Of a stretch of 64,000 nt of DNA, positions 12,328 through 61,674 are shown one piece after another. The position numbers and the translations under genes were made by a program. Positions within the stretch are counted from its first letter, which is position 1, and each line of letters begins with the position of its first letter. Source of the DNA: Bdellovibrionales bacterium. GTDB lineage: Bacteria; Bdellovibrionota; Bdellovibrionia; Bdellovibrionales; JAKFYE01. Location: assembly GCA_965206675.1 (NCBI GenBank), contig CBDBKL010000007.1, forward strand, positions 226,338-290,337, written 5' to 3'. A model generated the notes under the pieces. It did not search any database and was not told the DNA's origin. It saw only the letters and a program-made list of their open reading frames with translations.

Positions 12328-13236
12328 ATGACGCCAAATATTAAGAAAATTCTAAACCACTATGGATCGGACTCTCCGGGTGTTTTAAGTCAATTGGCAA
12401 AAATTTTAAACCATGGACGCCTTGGAGGCACAGGTAAAGTTGTCATTCTTCCTGTGGATCAGGGTTTTGAGCATGGACCGGCCAGGAGTTTTGCAAAAAA
12501 TGAGGCTGCCTATGACCCTTATTATCACTTTAAATTGGCTATTGAGGCGGGATGTAATGCCTATGCTGCTCCTTTGGGATTTCTGGAAGCAGGGGCAAGA
12601 GAGTTTGCAGGTGAAATTCCTCTCATATTAAAATTAAACAATTCAGATTCTCTTTTTACTCCTTCAGGTCCCATCTCTGCTGTCACAGGTTCTGTCGAAG
12701 CCGCTCTTAGATTAGGTTGTTCAGCTATTGGCTTTACAATTTATCCTGGCAGTTCCAATAGAAAATACATGTATGAGGAGTTTCAGAGGCTAGCAGAAGA
12801 GGCTAAAAGAGCAGGTTTAGCTGTTGTGTGCTGGTCCTATCCTAGAGGAGAGGGGTTATCAAAAAAAGGTGAAACGGCTATAGATGTTGTATCTTATGCG
12901 GCACAAATTGCAGCGCAACTGGGGGCTCATATTGTAAAAGTGAAACCGCCATCTTCACATGTTGAAATCAATAAAGCTATTTATGAGAATATTTCTATAG
13001 AGACGTTAGATCAGAGAGTTTCTCATGTTATGCAGTCCTGTTTTGAGGGAAAGCGAATTGTTATTTTTAGTGGTGGAGAAGCTAAGGGTAGGGAAGACAT
13101 TATTCAGGAGATTAAAAGCATTGCAAAGGGTGGAGGATATGGAAGTATTATGGGACGAAATGCCTTTCAACGTCCTTTTAAGGAAGCTGTTCAGCTTTTA
13201 AAGGACGTTATGGATATTTATGCAGGAAGTTTATGA
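12328..13236 (+). CDS. class I (DhnA/FbaB-type) fructose-bisphosphate aldolase
   Basis: LPVDQGFEHGP and IVKVK (Schiff-base Lys region) motifs. 4-nt overlap with lysS. Confidence 0.8.
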   Translation: MTPNIKKILNHYGSDSPGVLSQLAKILNHGRLGGTGKVVILPVDQGFEHGPARSFAKNEAAYDPYYHFKLAIEAGCNAYAAPLGFLEAGAREFAGEIPLILKLNNSDSLFTPSGPISAVTGSVEAALRLGCSAIGFTIYPGSSNRKYMYEEFQRLAEEAKRAGLAVVCWSYPRGEGLSKKGETAIDVVSYAAQIAAQLGAHIVKVKPPSSHVEINKAIYENISIETLDQRVSHVMQSCFEGKRIVIFSGGEAKGREDIIQEIKSIAKGGGYGSIMGRNAFQRPFKEAVQLLKDVMDIYAGSL

Positions 13237-14687
13237 CCAACACTCTTAAAATGGAAAAAAGAAAAAAGCTTCTTTCTTTAAAAAATAAAGGAATTGATAT
13301 TTTTCCTTATGAATTTACTCGTACTCATTCTAGTGAAGATCTTCGTAAGACATTTAAAGATTTAGAGACACAAGATGATCAAAAAATTCAAATGGCGGGT
13401 AGGGTTTTAACAAAGAGACCCATGGGAAAAGCTGCTTTTTTTACTTTTCAAGATCAAGAGGGAACATTTCAAGGTTATCTCAAAAAAGAAGATCTTTCTG
13501 AAAATGATTGTATATCTTTTGAGCACTTGGATATTGGTGATTTTGTAGGGTTAGAGGGTTTTGTTTTTAAGACAAAAAAGGGAGAATTGAGCTTAAGAGT
13601 TAAAGTTTTTAAAATATTGTGCAAAACATTGGAACCATTGCCTGAAAAATTCCATGGTCTGACAGATATTGAATTAAGATATAGGTATCGACACCTTGAT
13701 ATGGTGATGAATCCTGAAGTCCGAAAAATTTTTGTTACACGCCACAAAGTTTTTAAAGAGATTAGACATTTTTTGGATAGTCGAGACTTTTTAGAGATAG
13801 AAACTCCTATTTTACAACCTATATATGGAGGAGCTTTTGCTGAACCCTTTGTAACACATCATCGTTCCTTAGATATGCAACTTTATTTAAAAATCAGCCC
13901 TGAACTTTATTTAAAGCGATTGATTGTTGGAGGCTTTGATAAGGTTTATGACTTAAATCGAAATTTTAGAAATGAAGGAATTGATCGTTCTCATAATCCA
14001 GAATTTACAATGATAGAGTGGTATGAGGCTTATACTGACTATAATTATCAAATGAAACAGTTTGAAGACTTGGTTTCTACTGTAGCAGAGAGAGTGACTG
14101 GAAGTATGAAAATTAATTACCAAGGAAAAAGTATTGATTTTACTCCACCCTGGGAAAGACTTTCAGTGTATGAAGCTATTCAAAAGTATATGAATATTGA
14201 TGTCAAAGGTCTTTCTGATAAAGAACTTTGGTCCTGTGCTAAGGATAATGGAACCCTTTTGAAAGGGCCACCTTCTCGTGGAGAAATGATTTTAGAGATA
14301 TTTGAATTAGGTTGTGAAAAATATCTTTGGGATCCTGTTTTTATTAAAGATCATCCTATTGAATGTTCACCGTTGACAAAAAACCATAGAACGGAAAAAG
14401 GATTAGTTGAGAGGTTTGAACCTTTTGTAGCTTGTATGGAATTAGGAAATGCTTATTCTGAGCTTAATGATCCTATTGAACAAAGAGAAAGATTGATGGA
14501 ACAGAAAAAAGAGCAAACCCAAGGTGGTTTTATCCCTCCTTTAGATGAAGATTTTCTTCATGCTCTTGAAGTGGGAATGCCTCCAACGGGTGGCGTGGGT
14601 CTTGGTGTAGAGCGTTTGGTTATGCTATTAACAGATTCAGCTAGTATTCGTGATGTTATCCCTTTTCCTACAATGAAGATAAAGTGA
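13233..14687 (+). CDS. lysS: lysine--tRNA ligase (class II)
   Basis: FRNEGIDRSHNPEFTMIEWY motif 2 and GGVGLGVERL motif 3. Confidence 0.95.
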   Translation: MTNTLKMEKRKKLLSLKNKGIDIFPYEFTRTHSSEDLRKTFKDLETQDDQKIQMAGRVLTKRPMGKAAFFTFQDQEGTFQGYLKKEDLSENDCISFEHLDIGDFVGLEGFVFKTKKGELSLRVKVFKILCKTLEPLPEKFHGLTDIELRYRYRHLDMVMNPEVRKIFVTRHKVFKEIRHFLDSRDFLEIETPILQPIYGGAFAEPFVTHHRSLDMQLYLKISPELYLKRLIVGGFDKVYDLNRNFRNEGIDRSHNPEFTMIEWYEAYTDYNYQMKQFEDLVSTVAERVTGSMKINYQGKSIDFTPPWERLSVYEAIQKYMNIDVKGLSDKELWSCAKDNGTLLKGPPSRGEMILEIFELGCEKYLWDPVFIKDHPIECSPLTKNHRTEKGLVERFEPFVACMELGNAYSELNDPIEQRERLMEQKKEQTQGGFIPPLDEDFLHALEVGMPPTGGVGLGVERLVMLLTDSASIRDVIPFPTMKIK

Positions 14688-14690
14688 TTT

Positions 14691-15614
14691 ATGAGTTTAG
14701 AAGCTCGGGTTTATAAACGTTTAAAACCATTAAAAAACAGTTCAATTCTTATTGCTGTTTCTGGTGGTCGTGATTCGATGGTTCTGTTGGACCTATTGCT
14801 TCGCATTCAAGAAGGATTGGGGTTAAAAATTTCTGTTGTACACTGTCATCATGGACTGTGTTCTGATAAAAAAGTCGGTAAATATAGAGATCAAACCTGC
14901 TTTTTTGTTGAAAAAAAATGCATCTTTCTCAAAGTTCCTTTTTTTCTTGTTATGAATAAAGAAAAAGAATTGAGGTCAGAAGCAGAGATGCGTGCTTTTC
15001 GTATCAAATCTTATAAGAATGTTTTAGAGGAGCAAAATAGAGATTATATTTTCTTAGGCCATCACTGGGAAGATCAGCTAGAAACACGCTTAATACAACT
15101 TATCAGGGGAACGGGGAACTTAAAAGCTATGAAATTTTCTTCTCCGCCTTATATTCGTCCCTTTCTCACTGAAAGGATAATGGCCCTTAAAATGTACGCT
15201 GAACACCATCAAGTTCAGTGGGTGGAGGATCCGAGTAATCAAAATGTACAATTTTTAAGAAATTGGGTAAGATATAAGTGGCTAAAAGACTTAGAAGGTG
15301 AAAGAACTGGGGGAGTTGAAGCTCTTGGTCGATCTTTGGAACTTATTGCCAACATGTCTTATAAATATGAGCAAGAAGATAGGACACAGTTAGATCGCAA
15401 TTTGGATAGAAAAAAATTTATGTCTTTAGAGAGTGATATGAGAAGGAATGTTTTACACAAATGGCTGACGGGACGGGGATTTAGCTCATTTACCTTTTCT
15501 CAAATTGAGGAAGCTTTAAAACGCTTAAATCATTCTGCAAAAGAGAGTACATTTTATATTGGAGGGTGTCGCTGGACTATTGATGTACAACATATTAGAG
15601 TGGATCGGAATTAG
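14691..15614 (+). CDS. tilS: tRNA(Ile)-lysidine synthetase
   Basis: PP-loop VSGGRDS. Located upstream of ftsH, as is usual. Confidence 0.85.
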   Translation: MSLEARVYKRLKPLKNSSILIAVSGGRDSMVLLDLLLRIQEGLGLKISVVHCHHGLCSDKKVGKYRDQTCFFVEKKCIFLKVPFFLVMNKEKELRSEAEMRAFRIKSYKNVLEEQNRDYIFLGHHWEDQLETRLIQLIRGTGNLKAMKFSSPPYIRPFLTERIMALKMYAEHHQVQWVEDPSNQNVQFLRNWVRYKWLKDLEGERTGGVEALGRSLELIANMSYKYEQEDRTQLDRNLDRKKFMSLESDMRRNVLHKWLTGRGFSSFTFSQIEEALKRLNHSAKESTFYIGGCRWTIDVQHIRVDRN

Positions 15615-15639
15615 TCATCAAAGTCGATGACGTTTTTTT
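15614..15639 (+). terminator. rho-independent terminator-like hairpin after tilS
   Basis: GTCATC-AAAGTC-GATGAC stem-loop followed by G and T7. A fragment of it (AAAGTCGATG) is duplicated at 15851-15860. Confidence 0.5.
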
Positions 15640-15741
15640 GATTCGTATAAAGGAGGACTGTCGAAAAGGTATCAGATACGAGGCGTTCAAGCTCAAACCG
15701 AACGCAGGCGTAGTTTTTCCTACGTCGGAGTGAGTGTTTGA
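15638..15741 (+). repeat. Family-1 repeat, copy 1a (3'-truncated, lacks closing arm)
   Basis: TTGATTCGTATAAAGGAGGACTGTCGAAAAGGTATCAGATACGAGGCGTTCAAGCTCAAACCGAACGCAGGCGTAGTTTTTCCTACGTCGGAGTGAGTGTTTGA aligns to 1c. Confidence 0.85.
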
Positions 15742-15845
15742 TTTGTATTAGGAGGACTGTTGAAAAAGTGCCAGATACGAGGCGTTCAAGTTCAAATCGA
15801 ATGAAGGCGTAGTTTTTCCTACGTCGGAATGAGCTTTAATTGATT
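15738..15845 (+). repeat. Family-1 repeat, copy 1b (3'-truncated, more diverged)
   Basis: Joined to 1a through TTTGATT microhomology. Same block order, several substitutions. Confidence 0.8.
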
Positions 15846-15868
15846 ATAATAAAGTCGATGGAATTTTC

Positions 15869-16010
15869 TTGACTCGTATTAGGAGGACTGTCGAAAAGGT
15901 ATCAGATACGAGGCGTTCAAGCTCAAACCGAACGTAGGCGTAGTTTTCCTACGTCGGAGTGAGTGTTTGAGTGATTGCAACGAAGTAGATGATACCTTTT
16001 CGACAGTCCT
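15869..16010 (+). repeat. Family-1 repeat, copy 1c (complete; reference copy)
   Basis: Perfect 21-bp outer arms at 15884-15904 and 15990-16010 (AGGACTGTCGAAAAGGTATCA). Central hairpin GGCGTAG-TTTTC-CTACGTC. Confidence 0.9.
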
Positions 16011-16038
16011 TAGAGAACTTTGAAAGGATAAAGCTAGT

Positions 16039-18027
16039 ATGCGGACAAATCAAAAAACATTAGCTCTATGGGCCTTTATTTTTGTAGTTGTTATAGTGCT
16101 CTATCAAAAATATGGCAGAGAAATGAAAACAACAATTAGAGACTTTAGTCACTCTAAGTTCATGACGGCTGTAACTCAGGGTCATGTACAAAAAGTCACA
16201 TTTAATACTGAGACGGGTGAAATTTTTGGAGAGATGAAAGATGATTTTGTTAAAGAACACTATCAAGGAGCAAAACACTTTAAAATAGAGGGGAATACAA
16301 GTGATGAGGTTTATAAAGAGTTAAAGCAATATGGAATTACCCCTGATTATGTGCATTCTGATAATAAATCAATGTTATCGACACTCTTTTTAAATATACT
16401 GCCATTTTTATTTATTTTTATCATTATTTTACTTTTCATGAGACAGATTCAAATCGGTGGTGGAAGGGCAATGGGATTTGGTAAGAGTCGCGCTAAACTT
16501 CTTACTGAAAATAAAAATAAAAAGACCTTTAAAGATGTTGCCGGAGTTGATGAAGCAAAAGAAGAACTAGAAGAAATCATTCAATTTTTAAAAGATCCTA
16601 AAAAGTTTACCCGTTTAGGTGGACGCATTCCAAAGGGTGTTTTGTTAGTGGGACCTCCAGGAACAGGAAAAACATTATTAGCTAGGGCTGTGGCTGGTGA
16701 AGCGGGAGTTCCTTTTTTTAGTATATCAGGCTCTGACTTTGTTGAAATGTTTGTTGGTGTTGGAGCTTCGCGAGTTAGAGATTTATTCGAGCAAGGCAAA
16801 AAAAATGCTCCATGTCTTATTTTTATAGACGAAATTGATGCTGTCGGAAGGCATCGTGGCGCAGGAATGGGAGGGGGACATGATGAGAGGGAGCAAACTT
16901 TAAATCAATTGCTTGTTGAAATGGATGGATTTGAAAGTAATGATGGAGTGATTTTAATTGCGGCAACAAATAGACCTGATGTTTTAGATCCTGCACTTTT
17001 AAGACCGGGAAGATTTGATCGTAGAGTTATGGTGGGCAAACCTGATCTTAAGGGACGAAGTATGATTTTAGATGTGCATACTCGAAAGACACCATTAGCA
17101 AAAGAAGTGAGTTTAGAGAGAATAGCTAGAGGCACTCCTGGATTTTCAGGGGCTGACCTTGAAAATCTTGTAAATGAAGCTGCTCTATTAGCTGCTCGAA
17201 AAAATAAAAGAATGCTGGATATGGATGATTTAGAACAGGCTAAAGATAAAGTACTTATGGGAAGTGAAAGACGTTCTATGGTTATCAGTGATGAAGATAG
17301 GAAGATAACTGCTTATCATGAGGCGGGTCATACACTGGTTGGGAAAAAAATAAAAGGAATGGATCCGATACATAAAGTGACAATTATTCCTCGCGGGATG
17401 GCTCTTGGAGTGACACAAACTCTTCCTGAAGAGGATCGCTTGAATATGTCAAAACAAAAAGCAACCAATATGATTGCTTTTTTATTTGGTGGAAGAGCGG
17501 CTGAGGAATTAATTTTTGAAGATTTCACAACGGGAGCAGGTAATGACATTGAAAGGGCGACTGAAATTGCACGACGTATGGTCTGCGAATGGGGTATGAG
17601 TGATAAGTTAGGTCCTTTAACTTATGAAAAACGTGATGGACCTGTGTTTTTAGGAATGCAAGCAAACGATTCTAAGGAATATTCAGATGAAACAGCTTAT
17701 GAGATTGATAAAGAGGTAAAAGATCTTATTACGAAAGGGCATCAGCGAGCTATTCAAATATTAAAAGATAATTTGGATATTTTGAAAAATCTTGCAGAAG
17801 CTTTATTAGAAAAAGAAACTATTGATGGTGAAGAAGTTAACATGATTTGTGAAGGTAAAACTTTAGAAGATGTTGAGAAAATGAGAGAGCAAAGGATGAA
17901 AACTCTGGCTGAAGAATCCAAAATTAAAGAAAAGGAAGAAGAGAAGCGGTTACAAGAAGAGGCCAAAAAAAATAGTGAAGAAGAAGATTCAGGACCTGTT
18001 GGAGATCCTGGGCCTGTTACGGCATAG
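16039..18027 (+). CDS. ftsH: ATP-dependent zinc metalloprotease FtsH
   Basis: [11 protein letters not shown] Walker A, AAA module and HEAGHT zinc site. Confidence 0.97.
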
Positions 18028-18038
18028 TTCTTTTACCT

Positions 18039-18863
18039 TTGGGGGAAAACATTGTGTTTCAAAGGTTTTTAAATAATCTCAATTTAATGAAAGAAGCCTT
18101 TTATTTTGGCGATATCATAGATATTTTTCTTGTTTGGGTAATCGTTTATAAGGTTCTTCTTTTAATCAAAGAAACACGTGTCGTTCAAGTTCTGTCTGGT
18201 TTGGGTATTTTGACTCTCATTTATATTATGAGTATATGGTTTGGACTATTTACTCTGAATTGGCTTTTAGAAATATTGTTCAATAACTTATTTGTTATAG
18301 TTGTTGTTCTTTTTCAAAATGAAATAAGAAGAGCATTAGTTCATATTGGTAGAAATCCATTTTTTTGGAAAGTATCAGCTATAGAAGAAACGCAAGTTAT
18401 TGAAGATATAACGAAATCTGTTTTTCAACTTGCACAGAAAGGATGTGGGGCTCTTGTTGTTATAGAAAGAGAAATTAAACTGGATGAATTCATAGAAAGT
18501 GGAACAGAGTTGGACGCTCATGTTTCTGTCGAATTGATCAATTCTCTTTTTCAAGCTACAAGTCCTCTTCACGATGGAGGAATTCTTATTCGAAGGGGGC
18601 GTATATATAAAGCGGGATGTATATTACCTCTTACAAAGAGTACTTCAATAGATAAAAATTTAGGATTAAGGCATCGGGCAGGGGTTGGTCTTTCTGAGGA
18701 GACAGATGCTGTTATCATTATTGTAAGTGAAGAGAGTAGAGAAGTAGGACTTTCAGAGGGAGGAGAATTACAGTTAAAGTTAGATCCTATCTCATTAAGG
18801 ACAAGACTCTATAAATTATTCCGTTTAGAACAAAAATCTAAGGAATCTTATGAATTGGCTTAA
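18039..18863 (+). CDS. cdaA: diadenylate cyclase CdaA (DacA)
   Basis: Three N-terminal TM helices plus a DAC domain (DGGILI, RHRAGVGLSEETDA). Track start is TTG 18039. GTG 18054 behind GGGGG is an alternative. Confidence 0.9.
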   Translation: MGENIVFQRFLNNLNLMKEAFYFGDIIDIFLVWVIVYKVLLLIKETRVVQVLSGLGILTLIYIMSIWFGLFTLNWLLEILFNNLFVIVVVLFQNEIRRALVHIGRNPFFWKVSAIEETQVIEDITKSVFQLAQKGCGALVVIEREIKLDEFIESGTELDAHVSVELINSLFQATSPLHDGGILIRRGRIYKAGCILPLTKSTSIDKNLGLRHRAGVGLSEETDAVIIIVSEESREVGLSEGGELQLKLDPISLRTRLYKLFRLEQKSKESYELA

Positions 18864-21596: not shown

Positions 21597-21687
21597 AATG
21601 ACCTAGGCTTAACACCAGTTTTTCACAAACACTTCAAGAAAAAAGAACAATTTTTCCGAACAGCTCATAGATCAAACGGGTATAACT

Positions 21688-22584
21688 ATGAGTTTAAAAA
21701 AAATTGTAGCTTTTGTACTCATAATTATTAGTCCTTCAGCGCAAGCTTATAACTTCCATGTCGATTTTCCTGTTACACCAAGTACCTCTAATAGTTCTTA
21801 TATTGCAAAATTATTTATTCCCGATTTGGGTTTAAGAAGCCAAAAAATAGATAAAAAGACATATCTTTTTATATTCAATAGGTTACAAACTCTTTTTCAA
21901 CCTGTTTTTCATGAAAAAGGGGAGACTCTCATTATAAATAAAAATTGGTCTGAAAAGTGGGCGAGTGCCTATAGTTCTAAAGAAGACAAAACAATTCATA
22001 TTGAAATGACGGGAGCCCTTGCTCGTCATCATGAAATGACTCCCTTAGGTTTTACTTTAATAGGTTGTCATGAGTTAGGGCATTATATTGGAGGCGTTCC
22101 ACATAAGACAAATAATGAAAGATCTGTTGAAGGACAGGCCGATTATTTTGCAACTTCAAAATGTCTTCGTATCTTCTTGAAATCATTATATTTCGAAGAA
22201 GCCAAACTATTAAATTTAGAGCAGTTAAATGCCACTGAAGAAGTGGCTAATCGCTGTGAGAGAAACTTTTCAACTTTAGCAGATCAAGCCATTTGTAGAT
22301 TAAGTAGTATGGCAGCGATGAGTTTAGTAAATGTGATTGCAGATATAAAAGGAGAGAGTTCTCCTCAATTCACAACACCAAGTTCTCATACGGTTCAATC
22401 TACACTGGCATATCATCCTGAAGTTCAATGTCGTTTGGACACATTTTTTCAAGGAGCTCTCTGTCATGTCGATGAGTCCATTTCTTTAGATAACGAAGAT
22501 CCTAATGTAGGAACTTGTAATCGAGTTAATGGAGATCAAGAAGGATTACGACCTCTTTGTTGGTATAAACCCCCTGCTATGTGA
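21688..22584 (+). CDS. secreted cysteine-rich HExxH protein (putative zinc metalloprotease)
   Basis: Signal peptide ending AQA, a CHELGHYIGG motif and many Cys residues. Confidence 0.5.
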   Translation: MSLKKIVAFVLIIISPSAQAYNFHVDFPVTPSTSNSSYIAKLFIPDLGLRSQKIDKKTYLFIFNRLQTLFQPVFHEKGETLIINKNWSEKWASAYSSKEDKTIHIEMTGALARHHEMTPLGFTLIGCHELGHYIGGVPHKTNNERSVEGQADYFATSKCLRIFLKSLYFEEAKLLNLEQLNATEEVANRCERNFSTLADQAICRLSSMAAMSLVNVIADIKGESSPQFTTPSSHTVQSTLAYHPEVQCRLDTFFQGALCHVDESISLDNEDPNVGTCNRVNGDQEGLRPLCWYKPPAM

Positions 22585-22729: not shown

Positions 22730-23155
22730 ATGGAACGGACAACTTTAAATTCTACAAAAGATCTTTGTCATTGGACTGAAAAATTCATAAATCGCTTAGG
22801 AACTAAGGATCTTATATTATTATCTGGGCCCATGGGAGTGGGGAAATCGGAATTTGTTAAATCGTGTTTAAAGTTATGGGATGTGGAAAATACGTGCTCA
22901 CCAACTTTTGCTATTCATAATATATATACAACGTCTCATAAGGGTGTTGTTGATCATATAGATTTATATAGATTAGAAAGCGAGACAGATTTAGAGTCTA
23001 CAGGTTTTTGGGATATCTTTGAAAAACCAAAAGGTACTGTTTTTATAGAATGGGCTGATCGGTTAAAAGTTAACTGGTCCCCTCAAGAATGGACTGTTTG
23101 GAATATAAGCCTTGAGTTTTTAAACGGAGATAAAAGAACTTTGACTTTAAGTTAG
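22730..23155 (+). CDS. tsaE: tRNA t6A37 biosynthesis ATPase TsaE
   Basis: GPMGVGKSEF P-loop, SPTFAI motif, ~140 aa. Confidence 0.85.
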   Translation: MERTTLNSTKDLCHWTEKFINRLGTKDLILLSGPMGVGKSEFVKSCLKLWDVENTCSPTFAIHNIYTTSHKGVVDHIDLYRLESETDLESTGFWDIFEKPKGTVFIEWADRLKVNWSPQEWTVWNISLEFLNGDKRTLTLS

Positions 23156-23283
23156 AATCTATCCCAACTTTGTGATGAAAACGAGTGAGAGGTAAGGATA
23201 AAGCAAAAAAGGCGTGCTTGGGGTACCATTGAGAGTGTTTTTTAATCGGGTGCCATCGCTGTCGTTGGTTTTGGGATGAGTTC
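23155..23283 (+). repeat. Family-3 repeat, copy 3b (complete; reference copy)
   Basis: Imperfect terminal inverted repeats GAATCTATCCCAAC...GGTTTTGGGATGAGTTC. Fills the convergent gap between tsaE and the 23289 gene. Confidence 0.8.
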
Positions 23284-34026: not shown

Positions 34027-34719
34027 ATGATGTTTTTTCATTCTCTTGAGAAGCACTTAAAGTACCACTTTTTAAGTGAGGAGTTAGCTCTTACAGCTTT
34101 AACACATAAGAGTTATAAAAATGAAAAGAAAATAGCCTACGATAATGAGAGATTAGAGTTTCTGGGTGATTCTGTTTTATCGACAGTATTAAGTGAGTTG
34201 CTTATGAAAATTTATCCTGAAATGAACGAGGGAGAATTATCGAAGATGCGTGCCCATTTAATCAATGAGCGTTTCTTAGCAAAAATTGCAAATCAACTTG
34301 ATCTCCAGAGCTATTTAAAATTAGGTCATGGGGAAACACTTTCAGGTGGTCATTTAAAACCGCGGTTGTTGGCTTCTGCTTTTGAAGCGTTAATTGGAGC
34401 TATTTATTTAGATGGTGGATTTGAAAAAGCAAGGGATGTTGTTCATTTTATTTTTAAAGATAAAGTGAAAATACCCAAATTTGAAGAGAAAGAGGATTAT
34501 AAGACATACTTACAGGAAATGACGCAAAAAAAATATGATAAAGTGCCTACTTATAAAGTTTCAGAAGAGAGTGGTCCTGAGCATGAAAAAGTATTTTCTG
34601 TAGAGTTATATTTAGACAGCAAAGTTTTAGCCAAGGGTTCTGGAACAAGTAAGAAGCGTGCTGAGCAAGCGGCTGCTAAAATAGCTATTTTAGATTTAGA
34701 GGGTAAAAATGAGTTATAA
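34027..34719 (+). CDS. rnc: ribonuclease III
   Basis: ERLEFLGDSVL signature and C-terminal dsRBD. Confidence 0.93.
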   Translation: MMFFHSLEKHLKYHFLSEELALTALTHKSYKNEKKIAYDNERLEFLGDSVLSTVLSELLMKIYPEMNEGELSKMRAHLINERFLAKIANQLDLQSYLKLGHGETLSGGHLKPRLLASAFEALIGAIYLDGGFEKARDVVHFIFKDKVKIPKFEEKEDYKTYLQEMTQKKYDKVPTYKVSEESGPEHEKVFSVELYLDSKVLAKGSGTSKKRAEQAAAKIAILDLEGKNEL

Positions 34720-36935: not shown

Positions 36936-36949
36936 GCAATCAAACTTTC

Positions 36950-37086
36950 TTGATTCGTATTAGGGGGACTGTCGAAAAGGTGTTAGCTACGAGGCGTACA
37001 AACCGAACGAAGGCGTAGTTTTTCCTACGTCGGAGTGAAGGTTTGAGTGATTGCAACGAAGTAGATGACACCTTTTCAACAGTCCT
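36950..37086 (+). repeat. Family-1 repeat, copy 1d (complete, short-core subfamily)
   Basis: Same architecture as 1c, with GAGGCGTACAAACCG in place of GAGGCGTTCAAGCTCAAACCG. Fills the convergent gap der/OMP and ends 2 nt from the OMP stop. Confidence 0.88.
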
Positions 37087-37088
37087 AG

Positions 37089-40304: not shown

Positions 40305-40697
40305 ATGAATATCATAAGAGTTTTAATTGCTAAACCTGGGTTAGATGGACATGATCGGGGAGCCAAAGTTGTTGCCCGTGGTTTGCGTGATGCGGGATTT
40401 GAAGTTATCTACACAGGGCTTCATCAAACCCCAGAGATGATTGTTTCGGCAGCCTTAGAAGAGGACGTTGATATTATTGGCCTCTCAATCTTAAGCGGAG
40501 CCCATATTCCTTTGATTCAATCCATTCAAGAACTGATGAAAGCAAAAGGGTTTGAAAAACCGATCTTTGTAGGTGGTATTATACCTGAGAATGATGCGGA
40601 GCGACTGCGCCAATCCGGCGTAAAATCTGTCTTTGGTCCAGGGACATCATTGAGTGAAATTGTGGATAGAGTGAAATCTATCGTTAAAGAATCATAA
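40305..40697 (+). CDS. cobalamin-binding subunit of a split acyl-CoA mutase (methylmalonyl/isobutyryl-CoA mutase small subunit)
   Basis: [14 protein letters not shown] (DxHxxG B12 motif). 130 aa, stand-alone. Confidence 0.85.
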
Positions 40698-40711
40698 AAA
40701 ACTTTCTGTCA

Positions 40712-40812
40712 TTGACTGTGTTGCAATTGTTTTTACTCCGACGTAGGAAAAACTACGCCTCCATTCGTTTTGTACGCCTTGTATCTAACATTTTTTCAGC
40801 AACCTTCTTATA
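40712..40812 (-). repeat. Family-1 repeat, copy 1e (inverted, degenerate, no closing arm)
   Basis: The reverse complement reads ATAAGAAGGTTGCTGAAAAAATGTTAGATACAAGGCGTACAAAACGAATGGAGGCGTAGTTTTTCCTACGTCGGAG... Confidence 0.75.
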
Positions 40813-41044
40813 TAGACATTAATTATTAAAATGTAGAAAAAGCTAATCTGCTAAGGAAAGTCTAGCCCTTCTTTTTAATATAGGAAGATATGGCTAATGA
40901 AAAATTGTGTTTGAGACACGAGACACTAATGCTTCAAAAGGATATCATTCTCTAAAATCTGAAATTTCGATGAGCTTTAACATAAAAGTTTTAGATTTTA
41001 GAAATTAAATTTCACACCTATTTTTAATAACTTAGCCTCAAGTC

Positions 41045-41087: not shown

Positions 41088-41414
41088 ATGGCGGTTAAAA
41101 AAATAGATTACTATGTTACTGAAAATGGCAAGGAACCCTTCCTTGAGTGGGTTAATAGTTTGGACATTGCTAGTCAGATTAGGGTTGACCGTTTTATCCA
41201 AAGAGTTGCTCAAGGCGGTGCTAAAAAGTCGATTAGAAGTTTAAAGAATGGTGTTTTTGAAATTAAAATTCCTCATGGATCTGGATTGAGAATATATTTT
41301 GGAGAAGTTGGAAACAAGTACATTCTTCTTTTAGTTGGTGGAGATAAAGGAACTCAAAGTAAGGACATTAAAAGAGCTAAAGAATATTGGAGTAATTATG
41401 GCAAACAGAAATAA
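41088..41414 (+). CDS. higB: type II toxin, RelE/HigB-like 'addiction module killer' family
   Basis: ~108 aa. The YVTENGKEPFLEW...GVFEIKI..GLRIYF pattern is typical of the TIGR02683-type toxin. Toxin-first order and a 17-nt overlap with the antitoxin. Confidence 0.8.
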   Translation: MAVKKIDYYVTENGKEPFLEWVNSLDIASQIRVDRFIQRVAQGGAKKSIRSLKNGVFEIKIPHGSGLRIYFGEVGNKYILLLVGGDKGTQSKDIKRAKEYWSNYGKQK

Positions 41415-41712: not shown

Positions 41713-42014
41713 ACTAGAATTTCTATATTATTATATTTAATCATAAATTTATTTTGTTTTTTATTCTTATTCTTATTGAGGAACAAAGGAGGTGGTAAAT
41801 ATATCAATAGTTATTAGTTGTACTCATGGAAAAAAACTGGAAAAAGGATATTAGAAATGCTCTGTAAAAATATTACCCCATCTTTTGTCTGGATAGCTAT
41901 TGGAAAAAATTCTCTCCTAGATATTCAATTTTTTTTCCAGAGCGCAGAGCGTATCGTGAGAAAGAGCAAGTTAATAATCAAACATAAAAGAGAAAATCGC
42001 ATAAAGAGCCAGAC

Positions 42015-42132
42015 GGACTTTTCAAAAAGCGTTAGATACGAGGCGTTCAAGCTCAAACCGAACGGTTTTTCCTACGTTGGAGTGAAGGTTTGAGTGATTA
42101 CAACGAAGTAGATGACGCTTTTTGAAAAGTCC
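42015..42132 (+). repeat. Family-1 repeat, copy 1f (complete arms with compensated sequence; central hairpin partly deleted)
   Basis: Arms CGGACTTTTCAAAAAGCGT / ACGCTTTTTGAAAAGTCCG form a perfect 19 bp. The core GATACGAGGCGTTCAAGCTCAAACCGAACG is conserved. Confidence 0.85.
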
Positions 42133-42183
42133 GCAGATACAATTAGTTGATTGTATAGCGGAGTTTATGTAACCATATAGGGT

Positions 42184-52005: not shown

Positions 52006-52081
52006 TGGCATCCCCTACGGGAGTCGAACCCGTGTCTTCACCGTGAAAGGGTGATGTCCTAGGCCACTAGACGAAGGGGAC
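52006..52081 (-). tRNA. tRNA-Glu (anticodon UUC), CCA encoded
   Basis: The reverse complement GTCCCCTTCGTCTAGTGGCCTAGGACATCACCCTTTCACGGTGAAGACACGGGTTCGACTCCCGTAGGGGATGCCA folds as a cloverleaf. Anticodon loop CTTTCAC. Confidence 0.95.
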
Positions 52082-52098
52082 AGTTCCTTATAATAAAG

Positions 52099-52176
52099 TG
52101 GTGAGCCGCCTTGGACTCGAACCAAGGACCCTCTCCTTAAAAGGGAGATGCTCTAACCAAACTGAGCTAGCGGCCC
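52099..52176 (-). tRNA. tRNA-Lys (anticodon UUU), CCA encoded
   Basis: The reverse complement GGGCCGCTAGCTCAGTTTGGTTAGAGCATCTCCCTTTTAAGGAGAGGGTCCTTGGTTCGAGTCCAAGGCGGCTCACCA folds as a cloverleaf. Anticodon loop CTTTTAA, 10-nt D-loop. Confidence 0.95.
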
Positions 52177-52229: not shown

Positions 52230-52232
52230 TAA

Positions 52233-52361
52233 GAGCCTATCCAAACTTGGTGATGAAAAAGAGCGAGAGCAAGGATGAAAGTAAAAAAGCCGTGCTGGGG
52301 ACATATTTTGGGGATATTTTTTAACTGGTGTAATCATCATCGTTGGTTTTGGGATAGGTTC
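52233..52361 (+). repeat. Family-3 repeat, copy 3c (complete)
   Basis: GAGCCTATCCAAACTTGGTGATGAAAAAGAGCGAGAGCAAGGATGAAAG...GGTGTAATCATCATCGTTGGTTTTGGGATAGGTTC. Lies between the purA stop and tRNA-Lys. Confidence 0.8.
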
Positions 52362-53757: not shown

Positions 53758-53949
53758 AAGGGAGTTTTTTTCAGAGGGGTTCAAAAGCTCAGACAGTTCT
53801 GAGGGTTCGCAGCTCGTCTCTCCGCCAAAGGTTAAAACAGTAACTAGATAAAATTTGATTCAGTTAAACTTAAGAAAAACGGTTTCTAGCGGAGATACGC
53901 CCTGCGCCTCAGAAAACTCGTTTTGAACCCCTCTGAAAAAAACTCCCTT
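53758..53949 (+). repeat. Family-2 rod-hairpin repeat, copy 2B (with 63-nt apical insertion at 53826-53888)
   Basis: Perfect 29-bp outer arms AAGGGAGTTTTTTTCAGAGGGGTTCAAAA and its reverse complement. Core identical to 2C up to the apex. Confidence 0.88.
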
Positions 53950-53979
53950 CTTAACGCAAAAAAGAAAAATGGAACTTCC

Positions 53980-54115
53980 TTAATTCGTATTAGGAGGACT
54001 GTCGAAAAGGTGTCAGATACGAGGCGTACAAACCGAACGAAGGCGTAGTTTTCCTACGTCGGAGTGAAGGTTTGAGTGATTGCAACGAAGTAGATGACAC
54101 CTTTTCAACAATCCT
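53980..54115 (+). repeat. Family-1 repeat, copy 1g (complete, short-core subfamily)
   Basis: Near-identical to 1d. Its right arm (to 54115) contains the last three sense codons and the TGA stop of the 54105-55052 gene. Confidence 0.88.
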
Positions 54116-55052
54116 GGTACCATTTTTCTGTGGGTGGTAAGTGCCATTTTAGTTTTTTGTGTTTTAAGTAGTGGGTGATAGATTCTATGGCATCGGAAGT
54201 GGATCGTTGAAATGCTGTTTTTGTCTTAGCGGCACAGTGAGGGGTTAAGACAACATTTTTTAATTTAAGAAGTTTAGAATTGGAATCTAACGGCTCGTTT
54301 TCAAAGACATCAAGTCCTAATCCCATTAACTCTCCTTCCTTTAAAGCCATAAGAACGTCTGCCTCATTTAATAATTCTCCGCGAGATGTATTGATAAGGT
54401 AGGTCGTGTCTGGGATCCAATTTAGAGTTTTTTTATTAATGAGTTTTCTTGTTTTTTGAGTTAGAGGGAGATGAAGGGAAAGTATATCACTTTGTTTACA
54501 AACCTCTTCTAAACCGAAGCGTTGGACATTGGATTTTAAAAAATCAACTTCTTCTACGTAGGGATCATAGGCTATAACTTTCATTCCAAAACCTTGAGCC
54601 ATAGATGAAACCTTTTTTCCAATACGGCCAAACCCAATAATACCGAGTGTTTTTTCAGATACCGTTTCACCTAAAGGATGGCGAGCCGCCTTCCAATCTG
54701 TATTTTTTAAATTACGTTCAGGGATTTTTTTTATACAATTGAGAATAAGAGTCCATGTGTGTTCGGCAACACTGATAACATTAGATTCTGGCGTGTGACC
54801 TAAGAGAATGCCTCTGCTTTGTGCAAGATTTAAATTTATATGGTCAAAGCCACTTGTTGCAGTGATAATCAGTTTAAGATGAGGAAATAAATTTAAAAAA
54901 TTTTCTTCTACAAAAGTTTCGGTTCTTAAAACAAGACCATCTATATCTTTATAAGGTTTTGAAAGATCACGAATTTTTATAGATTTAATACAATTATGTT
55001 GAGGAATGGTTTCTGGAAATTTTCCTATCCATCCGATGGTTAATGAGTCCAT
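54105..55052 (-). CDS. D-isomer-specific 2-hydroxyacid dehydrogenase (phosphoglycerate dehydrogenase-like)
   Basis: GIIGFGRIGKKV NAD-binding site and the catalytic R/E/H pattern (TSRG, DVFENEP, TPHCA). Confidence 0.85.
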   Translation of the reverse strand: MDSLTIGWIGKFPETIPQHNCIKSIKIRDLSKPYKDIDGLVLRTETFVEENFLNLFPHLKLIITATSGFDHINLNLAQSRGILLGHTPESNVISVAEHTWTLILNCIKKIPERNLKNTDWKAARHPLGETVSEKTLGIIGFGRIGKKVSSMAQGFGMKVIAYDPYVEEVDFLKSNVQRFGLEEVCKQSDILSLHLPLTQKTRKLINKKTLNWIPDTTYLINTSRGELLNEADVLMALKEGELMGLGLDVFENEPLDSNSKLLKLKNVVLTPHCAAKTKTAFQRSTSDAIESITHYLKHKKLKWHLPPTEKWYQDC

Positions 55053-61370: not shown

Positions 61371-61530
61371 AACCCTTTCAAAATGATGAAATAAATAACC
61401 ATAAGCTTTTTCGGAAAAATTGGAGGGAAAATTAAAATAAAAAGGGATAAGGAAGGATTCAGACAGTTTCAAAGGTCACAAGTTCGTCTACCTCACTTTC
61501 ATTCGGTATACGTTCTTGCTTTGAAAACCC

Positions 61531-61674
61531 GAAAGAGAGAACTTTTTTTTTTAAGACTGAAAAAAAGCTCAGACAGTTCTGAGGGTTCGCAGCTCGTCTC
61601 TCCCTTCGGGAGATACGCCCTGCGCCTCAGAAAACTCGTTTTTTACAGTCTTAAAAAAGTTCTCTCTCTCTTTC
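61531..61674 (+). repeat. Family-2 rod-hairpin repeat, copy 2C (reference copy)
   Basis: Outer arms GAAAGAGAGAAC-T10-AAGACTG / CAGTCTT-A6-GTTCTCTCTCTCTTTC. Core GCTCAGACAGTTCTGAGGGTTCGCAGCTCGTCTCTCCCTTCGGGAGATACGCCCTGCGCCTCAGAAAACTCG. Confidence 0.88.

Follow-up and report, generated by a model that had tools for sequence, protein, structure and literature searches.

Bacterial MITEs, in the definition used here (PMC2229807), are smaller than 200-300 bp and without coding capacity, carry terminal inverted repeats, occur in dispersed copies at sites that are filled in some strains and empty in others, have a target-site duplication or a TA dinucleotide at their ends, are A+T-richer than the genome and share their terminal repeats with a parent IS or transposase. 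The Correia elements (CREE/NEMIS) of Neisseria are non-coding and intergenic, measure ~100-155 bp and combine a conserved core with long terminal inverted repeats (26 bp and an IHF site in the core of the consensus); their transcripts form long hairpins, and strains vary in their presence or absence. The ends of Correia elements can create promoters for the adjacent gene, and their stem is a substrate of RNase III (PMC2649163, PMC2229807). The YPAL elements lack TA ends and are not A+T-rich (PMC2229807). Like the ERIC/IRU elements, YPAL/RU-2 elements, found in enterobacteria and Yersinia, are imperfect palindromes of ~127-168 bp, which are transcribed, intergenic, located near stop codons and present in either orientation. 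REP elements act as mRNA 3' stabilisers. The pneumococcal BOX/RUP and the E. coli REP/BIME sequences are small dispersed repeats, which form modular or tandem clusters with a variable number of sub-units, as seen for boxB of BOX and for BIMEs (PMC3049150).

Here, we describe an array of repeat units between tilS and ftsH in a bacterium of the Bdellovibrionota lineage. The units belong to a family that is a new, lineage-specific, non-coding, hairpin-forming dispersed repeat, and it is rather probable that the array is an insertion of the MITE/Correia/ERIC type, which was rearranged locally and in which the closing arm of the last unit bears the ftsH promoter. The family resembles Correia elements in the size, intergenic position, inverted repeats, core, hairpins and strain variation listed above; however, this likeness is purely architectural, with no sequence similarity noted. 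The two further differ in their host, in that no TA target-site duplication was detected here, in a ~25-nt one-sided 5' extension and in arms that are less conserved than the core. ERIC and YPAL elements are similar in size, palindromic structure, position near stop codons and orientation, and YPAL, being not A+T-rich, matches the G+C-richer element described here. In contrast, neither shares sequence similarity with it, the variable target-site duplications of YPAL are not seen here, and tandem truncated units are atypical of both. The tandem clustering of a small dispersed repeat is reminiscent of BOX/RUP and REP/BIME, but the modules of BOX and the units of REP are far shorter and regularly arranged in tandem, whereas the array consists of truncated copies of one long palindrome that are joined ad hoc. 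No RAYT or IS630-type partner was found.

The array and its repeat family

The window (the whole stretch of DNA that was analysed, 64 kb in length) is A+T-rich, with a G+C content of about 32-37% and a genome figure of ~34%. Its FtsH protein has its best non-self matches (~73% identical) in MAGs labelled Bdellovibrionales or Bdellovibrionaceae. The gap between tilS and ftsH measures 424 nt and contains, at positions 15638-16010, three head-to-tail, co-oriented repeat units, of which 1a and 1b are truncated and 1c is complete. The features of the locus are:

13233-14687, + strand: lysS, upstream of tilS
14691-15614, + strand: tilS, left neighbour of the array (TAG stop, 307 aa)
15614-15638, + strand: hairpin GTCATC-AAAGTC-GATGAC with a T7 run at the tilS 3' end, reported by a consensus terminator scan and holding the first AAAGTCGATG (15620-15629)
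15638-15741, + strand: unit 1a, with 5' extension (TTGATTCGTATAAAGG), 5' arm (15653-15674) and core up to GAGTGTTTGA, without 3' segment and closing arm
15738-15860, + strand: unit 1b, diverged, with 5' arm (15753-15772) and decayed 3' segment (15837-15860), without closing arm
15851-15879, + strand: second copy of the block of tilS tail and 5' extension (AAAGTCGATGGAATTTTCTTGACTCGTAT), a direct repeat of 15620-15648
15858-16011, + strand: unit 1c, complete, with 5' extension, outer stem, internal helices and apical hairpin
16022-16028, + strand: ftsH Shine-Dalgarno sequence GAAAGGA, conserved in relatives and outside the array
16039-16041, + strand: ftsH start codon, conserved in relatives and outside the array
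16039-18027, + strand: ftsH, right neighbour of the array
18039-18863, + strand: cdaA, 3' of ftsH
34027-34719: rnc, the RNase III gene, encoded within the window

The presence of three units, which a sequence-only reading of this DNA had proposed, is confirmed: Tandem Repeats Finder reported a period of 99 (87% matches, score 310), a direct-repeat search located a core of 84 nt three times (15651, 15750 and 15881, with spacings of 99 and 131), and nhmmer, using a profile built from the four complete family copies, recovered 1a, 1b and 1c with E-values of 1e-33, 2e-29 and 4e-57, respectively. Unit 1a is identical to 1c at 99/104 positions (95%; five differing positions), and 1b is about 84-88% identical to 1a. 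The nhmmer match for unit 1a spans 15622-15741, and the unit may in fact begin as much as ~12 nt upstream of 15638. Unit 1b matches model positions 26-149 of 177 (80.7 bits) and ends with ...CGGAATGAGCTTTAATTGATTATAATAAAGTCGATG, which aligns in register with the 3' segment of the element (19/26), so that in 1b just the terminal ~20 nt, the arm, are missing. Both truncated units had been read as stopping at GTGTTTGA without a closing arm; the loss of the closing arm applies to both, but 1b does not stop at GTGTTTGA, as it keeps the decayed 3' segment. Unit 1c possesses a perfect outer stem of 22 bp, in which 15883-15904 pairs with 15990-16011; it folds with -69.9 kcal/mol on the + strand (z = -9.4) and -58.9 kcal/mol on the - strand and scores 155 bits with the covariance model. 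A single 3' arm is found in the array (15990-16011), and the 23-nt 5' arm is identical between 1a and 1c, for which shuffles gave 0 matches, whereas that of 1b differs at 4 positions in 20 nt. In an inverted-repeat search, complementarity to the 3' arm amounted to 92% for both 1a and 1c and to 77% for 1b. The sequence-only reading had thus correctly delimited the array and described the sole closing arm in 1c, two near-identical 5' arms with a diverged third, and an array end 28 nt before the ftsH ATG.

Seven units of the family are found at five loci in the 64 kb, and no further units were detected there. A complete unit of ~130-155 nt consists of a palindromic body of ~130 nt and the non-palindromic 5' extension. 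Besides the array, the family comprises:

36937-37088, + strand: complete copy (copy 36950), which fills the space between two convergent genes, der and an OMP gene
40685-40830, - strand: degenerate copy without closing arm (copy 40750; 56.5 bits), after a B12-binding-domain gene
41979-42135, + strand: complete copy (copy 42000), which ends 49 nt upstream of an M50 peptidase gene
53968-54117, + strand: complete copy (copy 53980), antisense to its neighbour genes and overlapping the stop codon of a 2-hydroxyacid dehydrogenase gene

The contexts of these copies are mixed: they lie between convergent genes, upstream, downstream or antisense, abut or overlap stop codons and occur in either orientation. 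Such variety speaks against a dedicated role in cis-regulation. The four complete copies share an identical core block of 28 nt, and their arms, which are complementary in each of the four, are more variable than the core. The outer stem is kept through six both-side changes, a value reached by 0/500 shuffles; a single copy contributes five of these six pairs, and correction templated by the palindrome, or gene conversion, can produce such covariation of the arms without selection. Copy 42000 has diverged in both arms, which are still complementary, and lacks 8 nt of the apical hairpin.

The units share no conserved ORF and contain just short ORFs with TTG starts. The G+C content of the family element is 43-48% compared to ~34% for the genome. 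At the gathering threshold, Rfam gave no family match for the element and two tRNAs alone for the window, and the best Rfam matches in 15560-16060 (E = 0.65-4) were far below the thresholds. Three core patterns yielded 0 matches across GTDB genomes, JGI metagenomes and IMG/VR, and blastn of the element against plasmids and phages gave no match. Within the window, the arm sequence is present in family copies alone, and no transposase bearing matching arms was found there or in the public collections.

The window contains further repeats. A second palindromic family, which has no Rfam match, is represented at 53760-53950 and 61540-61665, with a degenerate third copy at 61453-61530. The core halves of the first two copies are 100% identical (41 nt and 34 nt), and their outer self-complementary arms, which look like bidirectional terminator hairpins with T/A runs, are entirely different; the copy at 53783 carries a 66-nt insertion in its apical loop. 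Furthermore, a 130-nt direct repeat with 72% identity is found at 23154-23283 and 52232-52361, one copy of which adjoins a tRNA-Lys/tRNA-Glu pair (52006-52176).

Insertion, strain variation and local rearrangement

The closest element-free comparison is provided by L005, a part of a 1.82-Mb metagenomic contig, which is ~80% identical to the window in DNA and has its genes in the same order. L005 has no element between tilS and ftsH, where 33 nt separate the tilS end from the ftsH start codon, and its 22 kb contain no copy of the family. Since this spacer measures 33 nt in L005 and 69-122 nt in more distant relatives compared to 424 nt in the window, the array represents an insertion into a short ancestral spacer. 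A direct repeat flanking the array was not found in a comparison with L005 alone; a TA dinucleotide adjoins the stem in two of the complete copies (1c and 36950), and the other two (42000 and 53980) lack it.

Sister contigs from two other samples are ~95% identical to the window where measured. The left junction of the array, including the 1a-specific TATAAAGG, is common to L007 and L008 from these two samples, and the right junction is identical in L006, which comes from one of the two samples and shares 95% DNA identity with the window over 5.6 kb. The L006, L007 and L008 contigs derive from short reads and all end inside the repeat. The other family sites vary as well. At the site of copy 36950, L009 (3741-4151; SRR23238833) contains, instead of the element, an ORF of 136 aa, in which a stretch of ~60 nt is repeated and for which Pfam gave no match, and copies 40750 and 42000 are missing from L010.

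Three further observations concern differences between strains. In the window, copies 40750 (- strand) and 42000 (+ strand) are mutually inverted and bracket a 1.2-kb strain-variable islet between the B12-binding-domain and M50 peptidase genes, which contains a Gp49-like (HigB-type) ORF at 41088-41414; in L010 (2435-7000), the islet harbors a TIR_2-domain gene and an 863-aa ResIII helicase gene but no family copy, and a possible arm remnant, cctttcgtccgcagata, is all that is left. A solo 40-nt fragment of the 3' arm and segment is present on the - strand after pdxJ in L006 (5620-5659; SRR23238833); it is absent from the window (21597-21690), where the spacer is unrelated. Finally, between strains with ~95% identity, the closing arm of the orthologous copy at the 2-hydroxyacid dehydrogenase stop codon (L011 3939-3988; window 54069-54117) differs at ~7/30 positions and by an indel of 2 nt, while the core adjoining the diverged arm is unchanged. 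This suggests that the arms turn over rapidly or that gene conversion takes place between subfamilies.

The insertion also affected the end of tilS. In L007 and L008 (6918-6951), tilS continues through the hairpin and nine codons beyond the TAG of the window to a TGA in the 5' end of the element, yielding a protein of 316 aa, and in the element-free L005 (9920-9967), TilS has 322 aa, with AAAGCTGATATTC at the hairpin position as tilS coding sequence. The varying tilS ends (307 aa in the window, 316 aa in the sisters, 322 aa in L005) therefore indicate that the repeat reshaped the TilS C-terminus. The hairpin had been taken for the tilS terminator; it is terminator-like, but the 6-bp stem is weak (-7.7 kcal/mol, z = -1.9), and the sequence is coding in two sister strains.

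The same stretch bears on the origin of the array. AAAGTCGATG is present at exactly two places in the 64 kb (15620 and 15851), both of which belong to a direct repeat of 29 nt with 83% identity and a spacing of 231, and the tilS-tail stretch is repeated within the array with 17/20 identity (4/2000 shuffles). As tilS reads through the hairpin in the sister strains, the AAAGTCGATG at 15620 is tilS-tail sequence, and its second occurrence within the 29-nt repeat means that the flank was duplicated along with a unit, which supports local illegitimate recombination. The sequence-only reading had proposed illegitimate or slipped recombination rather than three independent insertions, and it is upheld by the flank repeated inside the array and by a junction in short microhomology. 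The duplicated piece that it placed at 15851-15860 is real and corresponds to tilS-tail sequence. One detail needs correction: at the 1a/1b junction, the two parental sequences have TTTGA (4-5 nt) in common and not the 7-nt TTTGATT.

In addition, the tilS-tail stretch (AAAGTCGATG) aligns with the GAAGTAGATG segment of the element, and an unequal crossover at this GAAGTAGATG/AAAGTCGATG homeology would explain both alignments. According to the course of events that we propose, a single element would have inserted into the short spacer between tilS and ftsH in an ancestor, either at the extended -10 from which ftsH was then expressed or just downstream of it. Local recombination, illegitimate or unequal and in at least two steps, would subsequently have given rise to the two units without a complete 3' end that precede the complete unit. 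One step would have used the TTTGA microhomology, and the other would have joined GAAGTAGATG of the element to the similar tilS-tail AAAGTCGATG. The 5' extensions of 1a and 1c are ~70-83% identical compared to 95-98% in the core, so that an extra assumption is needed, i.e., gene conversion or selection on the tilS tail. Several scenarios fit the order of the duplication events, and none is clearly the most parsimonious.

A derivation of the 5' extension from a degenerate copy of the 3' end of the element (terminal redundancy, rolling-circle origin) was considered and rejected, as the alignments in three copies were no better than shuffles; the tilS tail alone resembles a 42000-type 3' end (0/1000 shuffles).

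The candidate ftsH promoter and the predicted pairing of the arms

In four relatives, the 130 nt upstream of ftsH contain exactly one TGnTAnnnT each, which ends 32-41 nt from the ATG (TGTTAGAAT at 41, TGCTAGATT at 37, TGCTAACGT at 32 and TGATATTCT at 40 nt), at a background of 0.5-1.5 such motifs per kb. This conserved motif is most simply taken as the putative ftsH promoter. The window contains one counterpart:

15990-15998, + strand: TGATACCTT, candidate ftsH promoter, the sole TGnTAnnnT in the 130 nt upstream of ftsH

TGATACCTT lies within the 3' segment and closing arm of unit 1c and ends 40 nt before the ATG in both the window and L006. The motif is conserved in the relatives and the single one here is located in the 1c arm, which places the predicted ftsH start near 16005, inside the last arm, with most of the array upstream of it. 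For a promoter of the extended -10 type, transcription would be expected to begin 6-9 nt downstream of the motif. The last arm of unit 1c would thus probably supply the ftsH promoter now, and the left flank GATGAC(G/A)TTTT, judged from the alignment, may be the decayed ancestral -10. The motif requires the minority arm variant GATACC, which is also present in the solo fragment of L006, whereas most copies carry GACACC, and the majority arm variant of TGATACCTT reads TGACACCTT. The -10 hexamer TACCTT is weak (3/6 matches), and with the TA-creating variant in one other copy, the position of the motif could be due to chance (roughly p = 0.01-0.03). On the + strand of the array or the 5' extension, no sigma-70 -35/-10 combination with at least 9/12 matches was found, and 8/12 sites occurred at background level. 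A perfect TATAAT at 15845-15850 was rejected as a promoter, as it has no -35 and no in-register TG.

Taken together, ftsH would be transcribed from TGATACCTT, which the closing arm puts at the ancestral distance of 40 nt from the ATG, and read-through from lysS-tilS may add to its transcription. The end of the element would thereby have captured or rebuilt the ftsH promoter in a Correia-like manner (PMC2649163). This would leave the array, mainly as passenger DNA, on the upstream side of the principal ftsH start, and in tilS read-through RNA the 22-bp stem could, by analogy, act as a stable 3' structure or as an RNase III substrate. It had been suggested that the array is either part of the ftsH 5' UTR or displaces the promoter; the UTR part is at odds with the predicted start at ~16005 inside the last arm. 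This predicted position is close to a start downstream of 16010, which the sequence-only reading had named as one condition for an inert array.

A different role would result if the array were transcribed into the ftsH mRNA. It could then be a conformational switch in the 5' UTR or intercistronic region, in which unit number tunes ftsH, e.g., through RNase III cleavage or accessibility of the start codon; we consider this unlikely. When 15600-16060 was folded as RNA, pairing of the closing arm with the 1a arm gave -153.0 kcal/mol, local pairing within 1c -150.9 kcal/mol and pairing with 1b -140.1 kcal/mol, and the ensemble shares of closing-arm pairing were 87-97% for 1a, 2-12% for 1c and 0% for 1b. 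The two main pairings are near-isoenergetic and differ in the predicted unpaired probability of the AUG (~0.68 vs ~0.05). Co-transcription of tilS and ftsH is plausible given the ancestral spacer of just 33 nt, the hairpin after tilS is weak, and the perfect 22-bp duplex resembles the RNase III target in Correia elements (PMC2649163, PMC2229807), with rnc being present. However, such competition is expected of any half-duplicated hairpin, the Shine-Dalgarno sequence is predicted to be unpaired in either state, family copies elsewhere are not leader-specific, and an equilibrium fold over 340 nt ignores co-transcriptional folding. The conserved extended -10 predicts a start in the last arm and hence an array outside the main ftsH mRNA, and if the start is placed at ~16005, arm competition becomes irrelevant. 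Competition of the 5' arms for one 3' arm, as the sequence-only reading had it, is plausible in silico on thermodynamic grounds but shows no sign of a role in regulation, and the regulatory interpretation is unsupported and partly contradicted.

The 5' extensions of 1a (15634-15646) and 1b (15737-15746) are complementary at 12/13 and 10/10 positions, respectively, to ftsH codons 3-6 (16045-16057; ACAAATCAAAAAA). By a rough estimate, such pairing is at chance level for a region of 520 nt, and it was rejected as meaningful.

Nature and meaning of the element

In several respects, the family conforms to the definition of bacterial MITEs: the element is ~130-155 nt long and has no conserved ORF, terminal inverted repeats are present as a perfect 22-bp stem in 1c and as complementary arms in 4/4 complete copies, with the 5' extension making the element asymmetric, and dispersed copies with filled and empty sites between strains are found (five loci; L005, L006, L009, L010). 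However, its G+C content of 43-48% compared to about 32-37% for the window makes it less, and not more, A+T-rich than its surroundings. No target-site duplication and no parent transposase were found, which leaves transposition putative. Moreover, the core is more conserved than the arms, the reverse of what is expected for terminal inverted repeats bound by a transposase, and this fits a structured RNA or single-stranded DNA element better.

The family could accordingly represent a multi-copy structured non-coding RNA or a structure-recognised single-stranded DNA site, with the array consisting of gene copies or pseudocopies, an invariant functional core and a stem that is needed just as structure. 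An identical 28-nt core next to arms that vary with compensation speaks for this reading, which would also accommodate the orthologous copy with ~25% arm divergence in a genome of ~95% identity, the better fold of the + strand (-69.9 vs -58.9 kcal/mol) and the conserved one-sided 5' extension, which could be a promoter or leader. Yet the 5' extension lacks sigma-70 geometry, no terminator follows the element, Rfam gave no match, copy 42000 has lost half of its apical hairpin, and copies overlap stop codons in either orientation relative to transcription. Moreover, all but one of the six compensatory pairs trace to the same copy, such pairs can arise without selection, by gene conversion or by correction on the palindrome, and the basis of the reading is four complete copies. 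Like the leader switch, it is an unlikely explanation.

Two more far-reaching proposals are, even when taken together, quite improbable. The first is a functional switch at ftsH, acting in RNA or in cruciform DNA, in which pairing of the 1a or 1c arm with the -10-bearing closing arm would possibly set promoter availability or leader processing, and gain or loss of units by slippage could lead to heritable tuning of ftsH. The second is a new structure-recognised recombination or RNA element, which would not be a MITE and to which the invariant core, the fast co-varying stem, the one-sided extension and the copies bracketing a toxin/defence islet could possibly belong. Finally, units 1a and 1b could have been created by misassembly of a multi-copy repeat, in which case the locus would have a single true element. 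This would fit the three short-read contigs from other samples, which all break in the element and none of which spans the array, but is very improbable, since the units differ (1b by 12-16%, 1a from 1c at five positions), two other samples have the 1a-specific TATAAAGG at their left junction as well and the junction sequences are unique.

For annotators, the tilS "terminator" and the long ftsH "leader" would be by-products of an insertion, and short-read assemblies of the lineage break at this locus. Something new would emerge just if arm competition or the conserved family core proved functional. If the favoured reading of a locally rearranged insertion with a promoter-bearing closing arm is true, a small palindromic repeat landed on the promoter of an essential gene and was tolerated because its own end rebuilds the -10; this would establish no new principle but would provide a useful annotated case for the under-studied Bdellovibrionota.
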